From IMG/VR virus record IMGVR_UViG_3300035510_000237: a DNA stretch of 64,000 nt. One strand, given 5' to 3'. How positions within the stretch are numbered: the first letter of the stretch is position 1; each line of letters starts with the position of its first letter. Made by a program: the position numbers and the translations under genes. Below the pieces are notes generated by a model. The model worked only from the letters and a program-made list of their open reading frames with translations, was not told the DNA's origin and made no database searches. The stretch is from a virus. Below, in pieces: positions 40,591 through 51,316 of this stretch.

Positions 40591-41796
40591 GTGCTAAATG
40601 AAAATGGTATAAGAGAATTAGCCTATGTAGTGGTTATTGATGCTATTGAGCCTATTGTAGGTTCTGATAATTGTGAAGCTGCTGTAGTAGGCGGCTGGAA
40701 AATTATGGTAAGAAAGAATACTTTCAAGGCCAATGATTTAGCAGTTTATTTTGAAATTGATTCTAAGGTGCCTGAGACTGAGACTTATGCATTCCTCGCA
40801 CCTAAACATTATAGAGTTAAAACCCAGAAGTACACTTTTGGAGGAAAAGGCAACTTTATTTCCCAGGGCTTGCTGATGCATCCTAATGATTTTGGATGGG
40901 AAGTTGACGTTGATACTATTAAGACTCCTGATGGTAAAACACTCCAAAAAGGAGATTTCCTAACCGAATATTTAGGAGTTACTTATTCTACTGTTGAGGA
41001 TAATAAGCGTAAAGCTAATCCTGATGACAAGTATAAAAAGATGGCACAGCGTCATAGTAAGCTTTTTGCTAAGAAGCCTTATCGTTGGTTGATGCGTCGT
41101 CAATGGGGCCGCAAGCTGCTGTTCTTCTTTTATGGCAAGAAAAAAGATACTCGTGGCTGGCCTGAGTGGGTCAAAAAGACAGACGAAGAGCGCGCCCAAA
41201 ATATTCCCTATATTTTGGAAAATAAAAACCCTTGGATTGTAACCGAAAAAATTGATGGTACTAGCACTACTTTTTCCATGAAGAGGGGTAAACATAAGAA
41301 ATATGACTTCTATGTATGTTCTCGAAATGTAGTATTTGATAAACCTGATAAGGAATGTTTTTATGATACTAATGTATACATGGAAATGGCAGAAAAATAT
41401 AAAGTAGAAAATGTACTTCGAGATTTGCTAGAGACTCAATTTAAAGATTCTGATTGGGTGACTATCCAGGGTGAAACTTATGGCGAAGGTATTCAAAAGC
41501 GAAATTATTCTATTAAAGAGCACGATTTTAGAGCCTTTAATTTAATTACTTCCCAGAATGGACGACTGAATTCTGTTGAGGCCGCAGAAATTCTGAAACC
41601 TTATGGTATTCAGTGGGTTCCTATCATTGATGAAAATTATATTTTGCCTGATACTGTGGAAGAACTGCTTGCGGCGGCAACTGGTGAATCGGTCCTAGAT
41701 AGCTTGCCTCGTGAGGGATTTGTCTTTCGAGACGAATTTGGTATCCAGTCTTTTAAAGCTGTGTCTAACGAGTTCCTTATTAAATACCACCAGTAA
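40591..41796 (+). CDS. ATP-dependent RNA ligase (Rnl-type nucleotidyltransferase)
   Basis: GTG start 9 nt after GAGGAGG; motif I EKIDGTS (KxDG lysine). Confidence 0.55.
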   Translation: MLNENGIRELAYVVVIDAIEPIVGSDNCEAAVVGGWKIMVRKNTFKANDLAVYFEIDSKVPETETYAFLAPKHYRVKTQKYTFGGKGNFISQGLLMHPNDFGWEVDVDTIKTPDGKTLQKGDFLTEYLGVTYSTVEDNKRKANPDDKYKKMAQRHSKLFAKKPYRWLMRRQWGRKLLFFFYGKKKDTRGWPEWVKKTDEERAQNIPYILENKNPWIVTEKIDGTSTTFSMKRGKHKKYDFYVCSRNVVFDKPDKECFYDTNVYMEMAEKYKVENVLRDLLETQFKDSDWVTIQGETYGEGIQKRNYSIKEHDFRAFNLITSQNGRLNSVEAAEILKPYGIQWVPIIDENYILPDTVEELLAAATGESVLDSLPREGFVFRDEFGIQSFKAVSNEFLIKYHQ

Positions 41797-41804
41797 GAGA
41801 AATC

Positions 41805-41836
41805 AAAGGAAGGCTAAAAACCTTCCTTTGATTTTT
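41805..41836 (+). terminator. rho-independent terminator
   Basis: AAAGGAAGGctaaaaaCCTTCCTTT + GATTTTT. Confidence 0.7.
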
Positions 41837-41856
41837 ATTAAAAAATATGATATAAT
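41828..41856 (+). promoter_or_regulatory. class-2 promoter
   Basis: TTGATTTTTATTAAAAAATATGATATAATATATTTACAAA. Confidence 0.65.
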
Positions 41857-41888
41857 ATATTTACAAAGTTAAAGAGAGGAAATAAATT

Positions 41889-42410
41889 ATGAGTAAGATT
41901 TTGATTGTGGTTGATATGCAGAATGATTTTATTACCGGCCCTCTTGGAACTAAAGAAGCTCAAGACATTGTGCCTGCGGTAACTAGAAAGGTCAAAGAAT
42001 ATAGTGATACAACTGGAGTAGTTTTTTACACTAGAGACACTCATTTTAATGATTATCTTGAAACTAGTGAAGGAAAGGCTCTCGCTGTGAAGCATTGTAT
42101 TTACTGGACAGATGGATGGGAAATTTCTTATCAAGTATTGAAAGCTGAACATTTTTATAATGTTGAGAAAGCAACTTTTGGTTATATTTATTGGCCGGAG
42201 ACCTTTACTAAGCTTCCTATTATTCCTACGGAGATTGAGCTTTGTGGTGTCTGTACTGATATTTGTGTAATCTCTAATGCACTGATTCTAAAGGCTCAGT
42301 ATCCTGAAATTAAAATTACTGTAGATTCTAAGTGTTGCGCTGGTACTACTCCAGAAGCACATGAAGCTGCACTTACAGTCATGAGAAGCTGTCAGATTAA
42401 TGTCATTTAA
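41889..42410 (+). CDS. pncA: nicotinamidase / isochorismatase-family hydrolase
   Basis: VVDMQNDF and catalytic-Cys context LCGVCTDICV. Confidence 0.65.
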   Translation: MSKILIVVDMQNDFITGPLGTKEAQDIVPAVTRKVKEYSDTTGVVFYTRDTHFNDYLETSEGKALAVKHCIYWTDGWEISYQVLKAEHFYNVEKATFGYIYWPETFTKLPIIPTEIELCGVCTDICVISNALILKAQYPEIKITVDSKCCAGTTPEAHEAALTVMRSCQINVI

Positions 42411-42424
42411 GGAGGATATGATAT

Positions 42425-49176: not shown

Positions 49177-49189
49177 GGAGGTAATTAGA

Positions 49190-49699
49190 ATGATTAACTT
49201 GTATTTGTTAGTCGGTTTGCCGGGAAGTGGAAAAAGCACTTGGGCAAAATGTTTTACTTCTAAAAATGATGCTATTTGGATTTCGCGAGACGTATGTCGT
49301 TATAAGCTTTTATCTGCTGGAGATGAATACTTTAGCAAAGAGGAGCTTGTTTGGGAAGATTTTATTGGCTGCATTCAAGATGCTATCATTAAGGGCCGGC
49401 AAAATCCAAAAGAAACCACTAATATCATTGTTGATGCTACTCACTTAAATAAAAAATCTCGTGATAAGGTATTGAATCGTATTCCTTTAAACGGGGTTGA
49501 TTTAATCGCAGTTAATTTTATGACTCCTATTGAGCAGTGTCTAAAAAACAATGCTAAACGAGAGGGCCGAGCTAGAGTACCAAATAACGTTATTTATAAT
49601 ATGTATGATAGATTGGCATTTGTTAAAAACCATGAGGAATATAAAAAACATCCTTATTGGGAAATTCAAAATGAATATTGGTTAGATGGAAAGGAGTGA
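49190..49699 (+). CDS. pnk: polynucleotide 5'-kinase-like P-loop kinase
   Basis: Walker A LLVGLPGSGKSTWAKCF resembles T4 Pnk kinase domain; RBS AAGGAGG. Confidence 0.55.
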   Translation: MINLYLLVGLPGSGKSTWAKCFTSKNDAIWISRDVCRYKLLSAGDEYFSKEELVWEDFIGCIQDAIIKGRQNPKETTNIIVDATHLNKKSRDKVLNRIPLNGVDLIAVNFMTPIEQCLKNNAKREGRARVPNNVIYNMYDRLAFVKNHEEYKKHPYWEIQNEYWLDGKE

Positions 49700-49703
49700 T
49701 GTT

Positions 49704-49760
49704 ATGGCCATTTGGCTAACCTCAGATTGGCATTTTAATAAAAGTGCTGGTCAAGAATAA
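49704..49760 (+). pseudogene. 18-codon duplicate of the 5' end of the downstream phosphoesterase gene
   Basis: MAIWLTSDWHFN.. vs MAIWFTSDWH at 50752; lies between pnk stop and HEG. Confidence 0.5.
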
Positions 49761-49811
49761 TACAACGAATTGATATAATTTTTATATTTTATTGAGAGGA
49801 GGAATATAGAA

Positions 49812-50747
49812 ATGTATTCTGTATATAAAATTACTAACTTAATAAATAATAAATGTTATATTGGTTCAAGTATTAGGGTTGATAAACGATGGAAGGAACA
49901 TCTTAACTGCTCTAAAAATTCAAATGACCCAAAATATGATTATCCTTTATATTGTGCTTTTCGGAAATATGGAATAGAAAATTTTCATTTTGAAATATTA
50001 AGAGATGATTTTGATTCTGTGGAAGAGATGTAGAGCTATGAAAAAGAAATGATTATATTTTTTGATAGCTATAATAATGGGTATAATTAGACTTATAATA
50101 CTGATACGCCTTCTTTAGGGTCAGAAAATCTTCAAAAATATATTTAGCAAATCAGCCAAAAATGTGCAAAAGTTAAAAATGGTAAAATTATTGAAGTTTA
50201 TAATTCTTACCATGAAGCTGCAAGAAAAAATGGTTATGATGGCGATTTTTGGGCTTCCTCAATTAGAAAAGTCTGCAAAGGCCAATAGCGAAATTTTAAT
50301 GGAGATATTTTTCAAGATTTAGATAAAAACAATAATCTTGTTATTCCAAAATACTTAACTTCTTCAAGGCGTCAAAAAATTTTTTGTGTAAATGTTGAGA
50401 CTTTAGAAGAAAAATATTATGATTCAGTTTCTCAAGCCAGTAGAGAATTAAATATAGATAGAAATAGAATATAGCAATGCTCTTCTGGAAATTAGAGATA
50501 TTCAATTGTTCATAATTATATTTTTAGAAAGATTGATGAAGATGGTAATATTATTGAAATAGAAAATGCACCAACCATTGAAGAAAAAATTTTTTAGTAC
50601 AATGAATCTAATCCATTAATTAATGGGGAAAGGCATAGTATTAAAGAATGGTGTAATATATATAATATAACCACTAACAGTTATTACTAGAGAAGAAAAA
50701 AAGGAATGGGAGTAATTGAAGCAATTATTACCCCTAAAAGGAGGTGA
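49812..50747 (+). CDS. GIY-YIG homing endonuclease with NUMOD1 repeats (9 in-frame TAG)
   Basis: YSVYKITNLINNKCYIGSS..RWKEH; two ..Y.S..EAAR/QASREL NUMOD1-like helices; closes at TGA 50745-50747 only with TAG read-through. Confidence 0.55.
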
Positions 50748-51316
50748 TTTTATGGCAATCTGGTTTACTTCAGATTGGCACTGACCATTTTAACCATGAT
50801 AAAGAATTTATTTGGAAAGCGCGTGGTTTTACTAGCGCCCAAGAAATGAATGATATAATTATTAAACATCATAATGATGTTGTTTCTGACGATGATGATG
50901 TTTATGTTTTAGGTGATTTGTGCTTGGGCGATCTTGAAACTGGAAGAGAGTGCATTTCTCAGATGCATGGCAAGCTTCATGTTGTATTAGGTAACCACGA
51001 TACAGCTCGACGCATTGAGATGTATCAATCACTTCCTAATGTAGTTGAAATGGCATATGCGCTTCCTGTTAAATTTGGAAAATATAATTTCATTGCAACG
51101 CATTATCCCATGCTAACAGGAAATTTAGAAAAAGAATCTTTAAAACAAATGGTTCTTAATTTACATGGTCATACCCATTCAATCAATAAATTTTATAATG
51201 AACTTCCTTATTGCTATCATGTGGGAGTAGATGCTCATGATTGCAAGCCTATACAAATAGAAAATATTTTAGAAGATATGAAAAACAAAGTAAATGATTG
51301 TAAACAATATCTTTGA
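50744..51316 (+). CDS. metallophosphoesterase whose N-terminus is disrupted (7-bp CTGACCA indel after the ATG at 50752)
   Basis: ATG 50752 gives MAIWFTSDWH then TGA; GTG 50744 frame gives intact GNHD/GHTH phosphoesterase motifs. Confidence 0.45.
   Translation: MILWQSGLLQIGTDHFNHDKEFIWKARGFTSAQEMNDIIIKHHNDVVSDDDDVYVLGDLCLGDLETGRECISQMHGKLHVVLGNHDTARRIEMYQSLPNVVEMAYALPVKFGKYNFIATHYPMLTGNLEKESLKQMVLNLHGHTHSINKFYNELPYCYHVGVDAHDCKPIQIENILEDMKNKVNDCKQYL

Follow-up and report, generated by a model that had tools for sequence, protein, structure and literature searches.

A candidate RNA end-healing and sealing module near two split tRNA genes of a large phage

The window analysed here, a stretch of 64,000 nucleotides (nt) of viral DNA (IMG/VR record IMGVR_UViG_3300035510_000237), encodes an RNA ligase, a polynucleotide kinase and three metallophosphoesterases, which an initial annotation had grouped as a healing-and-sealing toolkit resident with two interrupted tRNA genes. 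Our analysis supports this grouping and enlarges it by an RlaP-like (RNA ligase-associated Pol-beta) nucleotidyltransferase, a cRec ("cyclic-phosphate processing receiver") protein, a DEDD exonuclease and a small Zn-ribbon protein. Judged from their sequences, these genes probably constitute a phage-encoded module for the healing and sealing of RNA ends. The main role of the module is most likely tRNA repair, and splicing of the split tRNAs would be at most a borrowed use. Each enzyme can be assigned to a family, the catalytic motifs are intact by alignment except in the phosphoesterase gene at 50744, and the genes share a same-strand neighbourhood with the ligase. All repair genes described below are on the + strand.

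The RNA ligase and its partner enzymes

The ligase gene (40591-41796) starts with GTG and encodes a 401-amino acid (aa) ATP-dependent RNA ligase of the Rnl5 type. Pfam recognises an N-terminal OB domain (PF21189, PHA02142 OB-fold, 1.8e-17, residues 11-78) and a C-terminal nucleotidyltransferase domain (PF09414, RNA_ligase, 8.5e-22, residues 214-391); here and in the following, such values are E-values. The PHROG "RNA ligase" was matched at 7.8e-56, and the nearest solved relative, NgrRnl of Naegleria (5cot, 7.2e-28), aligns over both domains. The KxDG motif pointed out in the initial annotation is K220-I-D-G (motif I, nt 41248-41259). Together with the motifs SRN, QGE, REGFVF and SFKAVS (Ia, III, IV and V) it is invariant or conserved in seven relatives; in motif V (K-x-S-F-K), conservation does not extend to the first Lys. 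The nearest NCBIfam model is that of the DRB0094-type RNA ligase (TIGR02306, 2.4e-20), with a score of 72.7 bits against a cut-off of 151.15. No DNA-ligase adenylation profile was matched, and the hits in Pfam, PHROG and NCBIfam were to RNA ligase families only, so that by profile the enzyme is an RNA ligase and not the DNA ligase that the initial annotation had allowed for. A NAD-dependent DNA ligase is encoded by a separate gene (62314-64000). Between the OB and nucleotidyltransferase domains, the RNA ligase carries a Lys/Arg-rich insert of about 58 aa (residues 132-189, nt 40984-41157), which is present in phage relatives and absent from NgrRnl. Among cultured phages, the Rnl5-like ligase family is found in 331 records, mostly of Pseudomonas and Aeromonas phages.

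The Pnk-like P-loop kinase noted at 49190 is a stand-alone polynucleotide 5'-kinase (49190-49699; 169 aa from ATG 49190, the mechanical open reading frame (ORF) beginning at TTG 49154). It matches AAA_33 in Pfam (4.2e-17), the polynucleotide kinase family phrog_505 (3.1e-27) and the Pnkp-like phrog_8238 (2.2e-12), and its solved relatives in the PDB are, best first, Pnkp1 (8e-9) and T4 Pnk (6.6e-8). The motifs G9-LPGSGKS-T17, R33-D34 and R37 stand in a register identical to that of T4 Pnk, and the element KREGRARVP, which contains the lid Arg, aligns with both T4 Pnk and Pnkp1. In NCBIfam the kinase matches TIGR04075 (4.7e-9), and its best match is L-seryl-tRNA(Sec) kinase (PSTK, 5.2e-11). The 169 residues include no fused 3'-phosphatase domain, neither of the HAD nor of the metallophosphoesterase type; the phosphoesterases are encoded separately. 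The small Zn-ribbon protein (48907-49176; phrog_1257, 4.2e-10) has CxxC...CxxC motifs in its translation, and in relatives its gene is placed between those of ligase and kinase.

All three phosphoesterases of the initial annotation, at 37079, 48162 and 50744, belong to calcineurin-type fold families. The first (37079-37951; Metallophos 3.1e-7, phrog_1649 2.2e-25) has the intact motifs GDTHG, GD, GNHE and GHYH, and in relatives its gene is located just upstream of the ligase. The second (48162-48848; Metallophos 7.9e-13, NinI-like phrog_246 1.4e-24) is a PPP/lambda-phosphatase-like enzyme with intact calcineurin motifs, including GDAGDRG and GNHE. It matches positions 189-307 of phrog_8238 (4.8e-4), PP1 over the GDxxDRG/GNHE region (4.9e-6) and also Ap4A hydrolase models. 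Kinase and second phosphoesterase both match phrog_8238, the PHROG of Pnkp-like kinase-phosphatase-ligase fusions. With the phosphatase activities of Pnkp as background, the sequence makes the 48162 protein a candidate healing enzyme for 2',3'-cyclic or 3'-phosphate ends, as the counterpart of the phosphatase module of the Pnkp fusions.

The third phosphoesterase ORF (50744-51316; Metallophos_2 8.9e-7, phrog_547 1.2e-35) is the body of an aq_1665-like metallophosphoesterase, whose family profile matched Aquifex aq_1665 (1xm7, uncharacterised; 7.7e-14) and GpdQ (2.8e-5) in the PDB. PDB searches with the single sequences of the 37079 and 50744 proteins gave no match. According to the family alignment, the contiguous ORF from GTG 50744 is missing the Asp of motif I (DxH), the first metal-binding residue. 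The native 5' end of the gene is found at 49704-49739, 5 nt past the kinase stop, where MAIWLTSDWHFN fits the N-terminal consensus of the family, M..IxFTSDxHFNHD. A gene for a GIY-YIG homing endonuclease, which stands outside the repair kit, is inserted in the phosphoesterase gene (49812-50747, + strand, with eight in-frame TAG codons read as sense). A second copy of the phosphoesterase start, frameshifted by TGAC, is present at 50752-50781, and on either side of the cassette stands a copy of about 56 nt of kinase-end/phosphoesterase-start sequence, duplicated in direct orientation (window 49704-50790). An intron was considered and rejected: no choice of junction gives a U at the 5' boundary together with a G at the 3' end of the insertion, and the flanking duplication is direct. 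Rfam at E<=10 gave no intron match on the insertion. The simplest reading of the sequence is that the homing-endonuclease insertion damaged the gene.

The remaining members of the kit were assigned by Pfam. The RlaP-like nucleotidyltransferase (33320-34129) matches PF10127 at 5.1e-4; in its family, 8 of 12 members match this model, the best at 3.2e-6. The cRec protein (39136-39504; PF20274, 4e-14) probably starts at ATG 39196, and a role of cRec in cyclic-phosphate processing has been predicted (Iyer et al. 2021, PMC7824862). Directly upstream of the ligase, a DEDD (RNase T-like) 3'-5' exonuclease (39519-40406; RNase_T 2.4e-14, Rv2179c-like 1.6e-6) could possibly trim ends.

The proteins of the window were used to search 87 phage loci that contain relatives of the ligase (35-68% identity). 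A neighbour was counted if it lay at most 6 kb from the ligase, and the matches were always on the ligase strand. The kinase was found in 52 of the 87 loci (median +1.8 kb), the 50744-type phosphoesterase in 46 (median +2.4 kb) and the Zn-ribbon protein in 36 (median +1.4 kb). Counts were lower for the RlaP-like nucleotidyltransferase (24 loci), the 37079-type (18 loci, median -1.2 kb) and the 48162-type phosphoesterase (16 loci), and lowest for the cRec protein (6) and the DEDD exonuclease (4). Because the repair genes adjoin the ligase in relatives, the ancestral arrangement was presumably a compact operon. In the window, the module is split by an NAD+ island (41889-47276) and by homing-endonuclease insertions.

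A repair pathway and its relation to known systems

These enzymes suggest the following course of events. Host ribonuclease defences would cut tRNAs and leave 2',3'-cyclic phosphate and 5'-OH ends. The Pnk-like kinase would phosphorylate the 5'-OH, and at least one of the calcineurin-type phosphoesterases and/or the cRec protein would open and remove the cyclic or 3' phosphate. Terminal nucleotides may then be tidied or restored by the DEDD exonuclease and the RlaP-like nucleotidyltransferase, and the Rnl5-type ligase would seal 3'-OH and 5'-PO4 ends via lysyl-AMP at K220. The tRNA array encoded by the phage and the genes for NAD+ regeneration would serve in the same conflict. What we infer from these enzyme families are the substrates (tRNA anticodon loops), the order of the steps and the assignment of phosphoesterases to steps. 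We propose that the module is part of a larger counter-defence island (roughly 21-53 kb), with the tRNA array at one end and the SPFH gene at the other. The supporting context consists of 14 tRNA calls, the two split genes, a ROOL RNA, DUF2828/vWA, major-vault-protein-like, SPFH and Macro proteins, and NAD+ salvage.

In large phages, a syntax of RNA repair and NAD+ conflict has been described in which ligases occur with polynucleotide kinases, with calcineurin-like, HAD, 2H or cRec phosphoesterases, with RlaP and with tRNA arrays (Iyer et al. 2021, PMC7824862, where an earlier survey of RNA-repair systems is cited). The kit is a fairly complete further example of this already catalogued syntax: the parts list is the same, and it again stands beside a large tRNA array, NAD+ salvage and a Macro gene in a large phage. 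It differs from the catalogue in combining an Rnl5-type ligase, a Zn-ribbon protein, a stand-alone kinase and an aq_1665-like phosphoesterase, and in being broken by the NAD+ island and homing endonucleases, with TAG as a sense codon in some genes of the window.

Alternatively, the genes might not belong to one pathway. The phosphoesterases would then act on proteins or nucleotide signals (as NinI-like Ser/Thr phosphatase, Ap4A hydrolase or degrader of cyclic nucleotides), the kinase would be a nucleotide or tRNA-specific kinase, and the ligase would seal RNA-primed replication nicks. Such roles would fit the matches of the 48162 protein to PP1-type Ser/Thr phosphatase and Ap4A hydrolase models, the position of PSTK as top NCBIfam match of the kinase, the sealing of duplex nicks by Rnl5 enzymes and the spread of the genes across 18 kb of the window. 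However, same-strand adjacency to the ligase is kept in dozens of diverged loci, and the phrog_8238 fusions join kinase and phosphatase modules with a ligase. We regard a set of unconnected genes as quite improbable.

Some observations do weigh against a tRNA repair module. The solved Rnl5 enzymes (NgrRnl and DraRnl) prefer duplex nicks with an RNA 3'-OH strand and not breaks in anticodon loops, which makes the true substrate of the ligase uncertain. By its score, the ligase would be placed as a relative of the TIGR02306 family, below the equivalog cut-off. The 50744 type is the phosphoesterase most often linked to the ligase, yet it looks disrupted here. Moreover, the module is physically scattered in the window, and co-expression is therefore not assured. 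Finally, when about 60 ORFs of the window, including every ORF of more than 300 aa, were scanned with Pfam, there was no match to a 2H cyclic phosphodiesterase, Tpt1, Hen1 or RtcB. The absence of a dedicated 2H cyclic phosphodiesterase among these ORFs counts against the module.

T4 Pnk and Rnl1 repair tRNA-Lys that has been cut by PrrC, and tRNA splicing in yeast and plants depends on Trl1, which unites ligase, kinase and 2H cyclic phosphodiesterase, plus Tpt1. The initial annotation had likened the toolkit to both systems. This comparison holds for the heal-and-seal logic; it fails for the type of ligase (Rnl1 or Trl1), for the HAD phosphatase and for the 2H cyclic phosphodiesterase, and a check of the phosphoesterase domains yielded calcineurin-type folds only. 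With T4 Pnk the kinase of the window shares the P-loop, the catalytic Asp and the Arg register. In contrast to T4, the ligase is not an Rnl1 and the kinase comes without a HAD 3'-phosphatase, so that 3' healing would fall to the separate metallophosphoesterases or to cRec. Kinase, 3'-end healing and ATP-dependent ligase activities are in common with Trl1, but the ligase is of another family, Sen/EndA is absent from the scanned ORFs along with the 2H enzyme and Tpt1, and the introns of the window are located at tRNA positions 36/37 and not 37/38.

Bacterial Pnkp/Hen1 and the Capnocytophaga Pnkp1-Rnl-Hen1 system offer a second comparison, as the kinase and the lambda-phosphatase-like metallophosphoesterase correspond to the first two Pnkp modules (phrog_8238, TIGR04075). 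Unlike in Pnkp, these modules are on separate polypeptides; the scanned ORFs do not include Hen1, and the ligase is of the Rnl5 family with an N-terminal OB domain. This domain order and motifs I, Ia, III, IV and V are the same in NgrRnl and in DraRnl of Deinococcus, from which the ligase of the window differs by the roughly 58 extra Lys/Arg-rich residues, the TIGR02306 score below cut-off and the first Lys of motif V, which is not conserved.

Split tRNA genes and compact introns

The two tRNA genes described as interrupted in the anticodon loop are both real, as found by ARAGORN with introns allowed, and both are on the + strand. The first is a class II tRNA-Ser(GCU) (22314-22847), with exons at 22314-22350 and 22794-22847 and a 443-nt intron (22351-22793). 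Most of the intron is taken up by an ORF of 405 nt and 134 codons (22377-22781) for a PD-(D/E)XK enzyme of the I-Ssp6803I family (PF11645, PDDEXK_5, 1e-25), in which residues E11, D36, D40, Q49 and K51 are invariant across nine sequences. The last three bases of the intron, AGC, are complementary to the anticodon. In a full-length fold of the precursor, the cloverleaf is intact and helices of 10 and 8 bp enclose the ORF (z = -3.9). The second split gene, tRNA-Thr(UGU) (26765-27583), has a 744-nt intron (26799/26800 to 27542/27543) with an HNH ORF (26895-27517; 623 nt, six TAG, HNH/Zn-ribbon Pfam matches). It is redundant, with intact copies at 22982 and 26445.

According to the initial annotation, the interrupted tRNAs might splice themselves without protein. 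We found no sign of this: neither intron has a terminal G (they end in C or U), the RNA outside the ORFs amounts to about 38-50 nt in the Ser intron and about 120 nt in the Thr intron, and Rfam intron and ribozyme families, including RF00028, gave no match at E<=10 in either intron or in the tRNA array. As a control for the Rfam search, the HNH-interrupted terminase gene of Enterococcus phage EFP01 reached only E = 0.11; the group I model is weak on ORF-bearing phage introns, and the Rfam negative alone therefore proves little. The junctions proposed by ARAGORN (Gly(GCC)/Asp(GUC), 35/36, terminal G) were rejected, since the Ser tRNA of the window has the class II form and G73, and since alignment with intronless alleles puts the site at 36/37, as tRNA-Asn. 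Three further readings of the junctions, as bulge-helix-bulge, as group II (GUGYG...AY) and as hammerhead, did not agree with the sequence and were rejected.

Relatives of the PD-(D/E)XK ORF in IMG/VR lie inside tRNA genes in about 50 of the best 80 loci (L019-L098). For statistics on pairing we used 40 distinct introns of this type, with the junction set at 36/37. In 37 of the 40, the three bases at the 3' end of the intron are complementary to the host anticodon (G-U pairs tolerated), as compared to 12.2+-2.3 with shuffled partners (maximum 20 in 2000 shuffles) and 0-3 after register shifts. Introns with such an anti-anticodon 3' end cover at least 11 different anticodons, and an intron-terminal G occurs in only one of the 40. 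The anticodon helix extends 5-10 bp into the intron and is followed by a conserved internal loop and a second helix that closes the ORF; synonymous sites of the intron ORF vary freely. After splicing in silico, 42 of 42 genes were called as normal tRNAs, and the exons remain tRNA-like where the ORFs have diverged to 35-50% identity. Since the 3' trinucleotide tracks the host anticodon, selection appears to act on an RNA helix that defines the exon boundary. To judge from these patterns, the compact introns are shaped by selection on an RNA helix that holds both exon boundaries. A group I intron, with a catalytic core of roughly 200 nt or more, would not fit into them, and its hallmarks are missing, as is a bulge-helix-bulge. 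A target-site duplication as source of the anti-anticodon was rejected because the repeat is inverted and not direct. ORF-less mini-introns with an anti-anticodon were not found in 1.57 Mb of loci, which is a biased sample. The internal loop comes in two variants: 5' CUGA / 3' CUGAUG, which is box C/D or K-turn-like (EFP01, L034, L042, L045 and others), and 5' AAAC / 3' GCAUU (window, L033, L061).

HNH-type introns were seen in tRNA-Thr, -Gln and -Arg, with covarying helices in relatives (loci L099-L102, L118). The 5' exon of six examples has a terminal G, paired with a C; this last exon G is position +1. Just before the 3' exon there is a tRNA-like acceptor/T-arm minihelix, made up of a 7-bp helix, a T-arm-like hairpin and N-CCA-U; in the tRNA-Thr intron of the window the minihelix ends in ACCA-U. 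A covarying hairpin, GUAU-AAGAA-AUAC, is located near the 5' end of these introns.

A cultured example of the PD-(D/E)XK type, with an intron of 463 nt, is found in EFP01 (Schiekvirus; NC_047796.1 105242-105777). In about 30 sister phages the same gene is uninterrupted and annotated as tRNA-Asn(GTT), and alignment with these intronless alleles places the EFP01 insertion between U36 and A37. The insertion is thus seen in one of about 30 Schiekvirus genomes, and among the cultured matches examined EFP01 alone has the intron. A direct test for an Rnl5 or Pnk homologue in EFP01 found none. The phage does encode RtcB, as do 596 records of cultured phages; 21 records of other Enterococcus phages contain the EFP01 RtcB at 97.6-98.8% identity. 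All 12 of the latter that were checked (EFDG1, Bop, phiSHEF16, EfV12-phi1 and others) have the intronless allele. Because intronless sister phages conserve RtcB, this ligase is older than the intron and does not depend on it. The presence of the ligases is clearly not tied to that of the introns; should splicing of the introns rely on an RNA ligase, a pre-existing repair enzyme would be exploited. Free-standing, more distant PDDEXK_5 homologues were observed beside intact tRNA-Asn(GTT) genes in highly diverse viruses, those of archaea included: Halorubrum virus HSTV-4, Salmonella phage PM10 (Kuttervirus), Bacillus phage BCP78 and Vibrio phage AG74. In Enterococcus phage Bop, an HNH endonuclease occupies the equivalent place beside tRNA-Asn(GTT). 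The anticodon arm of tRNA-Asn looks like a recurrent homing target.

In the literature searched, no report of such compact phage tRNA introns was found. Bacterial tRNA group I introns (Azoarcus, cyanobacteria, Patescibacteria) are also located in the anticodon loop after a U, and self-splicing tRNA introns at 35/36 are documented (PMC13011429). I-Ssp6803I, from the group I intron of Synechocystis tRNA-fMet, is of the same PD-(D/E)XK family (PF11645) as the intron ORF of the window. The compact introns differ from group I introns in the near absence of a terminal G, the small amount of non-ORF RNA (about 50 nt), the lack of an Rfam match and the position of the exon-binding bases at the very 3' end. 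Archaeal bulge-helix-bulge introns with endonuclease ORFs resemble them in the small RNA requirement, in being filled by an ORF and in the pairing of the anticodon with intron bases. In contrast to the archaeal introns, 3-nt bulges are absent, a continuous helix contains the 5' splice site and has the 3' site at its base, and the window ORFs scanned with Pfam did not include an EndA-like protein.

The initial annotation had proposed that the kit also joins the exons of the phage's own split tRNAs. The transcript would be cut by the intron-encoded PD-(D/E)XK or HNH enzyme or by a host RNase, the kinase and phosphoesterases would heal the ends if needed, and the Rnl5 ligase would seal them. In favour of this are the introns themselves, which are nearly all ORF, show no Rfam intron or ribozyme match and almost never end in G; their 3' ends, which pair with the anticodon far more often than shuffled ones; the 36/37 junction fixed by intronless sister alleles; the normal tRNA calls after in silico splicing; and the fold of the full-length precursor as a cloverleaf with a long hairpin. 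Both intron-bearing genomes examined also encode an RNA ligase (Rnl5 in the window, RtcB in EFP01). On the other hand, the 5' splice site lies within a regular helix, there is no bulge-helix-bulge and no EndA-like protein among the scanned ORFs, and the weakness of the Rfam group I model on ORF-bearing phage introns reduces the value of the missing ribozyme match. EFP01 has the intron but neither Rnl5 nor Pnk, is not among the 331 cultured records with the Rnl5-like family, and shares its RtcB with intronless phages. Among the matches listed, four contigs are common to ligase and introns. We consider it unlikely that the kit splices these tRNAs.

It is also possible, though doubtful, that the split tRNAs are never spliced, and that homing endonuclease genes targeting the anticodon arm have killed dispensable tRNA genes. 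RNase III processing sites are known from T7 early transcripts, and the hairpin around the ORF could likewise be a processing or stabilising signal for the endonuclease mRNA (e.g. an RNase III-type site), to which the kit would be unrelated. This would agree with the free-standing state of distant PDDEXK_5 homologues beside intact tRNA-Asn (halovirus, PM10, BCP78, AG74), with the redundancy of the split tRNA-Thr(UGU), with the single insertion among about 30 Schiekvirus genomes and with the lack of ORF-less hairpin introns in the biased 1.57 Mb sample. The GIY-YIG insertion of the window, with its flanking duplication and no intron features, is a case in which a protein gene is plainly disrupted. 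Against dead genes speak the last intron bases, which track at least 11 host anticodons with G-U tolerated, the insertion, which is always at 36/37, and the exons, which stay tRNA-like beside strongly diverged ORFs.

A more general reading, which we also hold to be rather unlikely, is that the introns are an undescribed class of phage tRNA introns without a ribozyme, located at 36/37, filled by homing endonuclease genes and removed by proteins, with the exons joined by a pre-existing repair ligase (Rnl5 plus Pnk in the window, RtcB in EFP01). The splice sites would be set by the three-base anti-anticodon, in a helix with a 3' stagger of 3 nt, and the cutter would be the PD-(D/E)XK enzyme or a host RNase. 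The probabilities given for RNA repair, for splicing by the kit and for dead tRNA genes are not exclusive, since the kit can repair tRNAs whatever the fate of the introns.

Genome context and implications

The window has a G+C content of 36%, and nearly all of its genes are on the + strand. A megablast search of the region against cultured phages gave no DNA-level match, and close relatives were therefore sought at the protein level. The source is a large phage in which TAG is read as sense in some genes. In-frame TAG (20315-21055, 26895-27517, 28094-29026, 34125-34844, 49812-50747 and 53666-58085) is confined to homing endonucleases, PhoH, an amidase, a holin-like gene and a few others, with no TAG codon in the repair or NAD+ genes. 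A suppressor tRNA(CUA) is encoded at 25272-25346 inside the tRNA array.

One of the 14 uninterrupted tRNA calls is an artefact from the 3' half of the split tRNA-Ser. The array also holds the ROOL RNA (25512-26099; 320 bits in Rfam), and EFP01 has the same ROOL-in-tRNA-array layout (265 bits; locus L259 6930-7516). Two near-identical tRNA-Ala(UGC) genes (21371-21446 and 21920-21995, with 474 nt between them) are possibly a local duplication in the array. Six stem modules of the form AAGAC-N5-CAGCAA ... GTCTTG were observed at 23927-26751 (starts at 23927, 24189, 24438, 25135, 25355 and 26672), a number reached in 0 of 100 shuffles. Every module is closely followed by a tRNA or ROOL gene, and a promoter-like TTGATA/TATAAT pair is enclosed in each. 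One of them holds a sub-threshold YrlA-like (Y RNA) match (25161-25263), and the stem motif is also present in locus L015.

The NAD+ island encodes a nicotinamidase-like (isochorismatase) protein, a weakly Prs-like protein, YqeY, a 595-aa NAMPT-like protein, a Macro protein and NadE; it resembles phage NAD+ reconstitution pathways. A DUF2828/DUF7788/vWA protein (29090-30607), for which a PDB search with the single sequence gave no match and a literature search on DUF2828 yielded nothing informative, is followed by a major-vault-protein-like protein with shoulder and repeat domains (30797-33223). An SPFH/flotillin protein (51350-52780) is located at the opposite end of the counter-defence island. 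These three proteins may be scaffolds for RNA repair.

The kit illustrates the scattering, and even the damage, that homing endonucleases and an NAD+ island can inflict on a module of the RNA-repair type that large phages use against host defences that cut tRNAs. The neighbouring split tRNAs are the more valuable outcome, as they lead to a family of at least 40 compact introns with no room for a known ribozyme. With an intron in EFP01 and about 30 near-identical intronless sister phages, a natural control exists and splicing is directly testable. To our knowledge, the natural substrates of RNA ligases in bacteria are largely unknown; if the introns are spliced, they would provide a defined natural substrate for phage or host RNA ligases. 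They would also reveal a protein-dependent tRNA splicing pathway in viruses that infect bacteria, and a ribozyme-less class removed by proteins would be the first case, outside archaea and eukaryotes, of tRNA splicing that depends on proteins.

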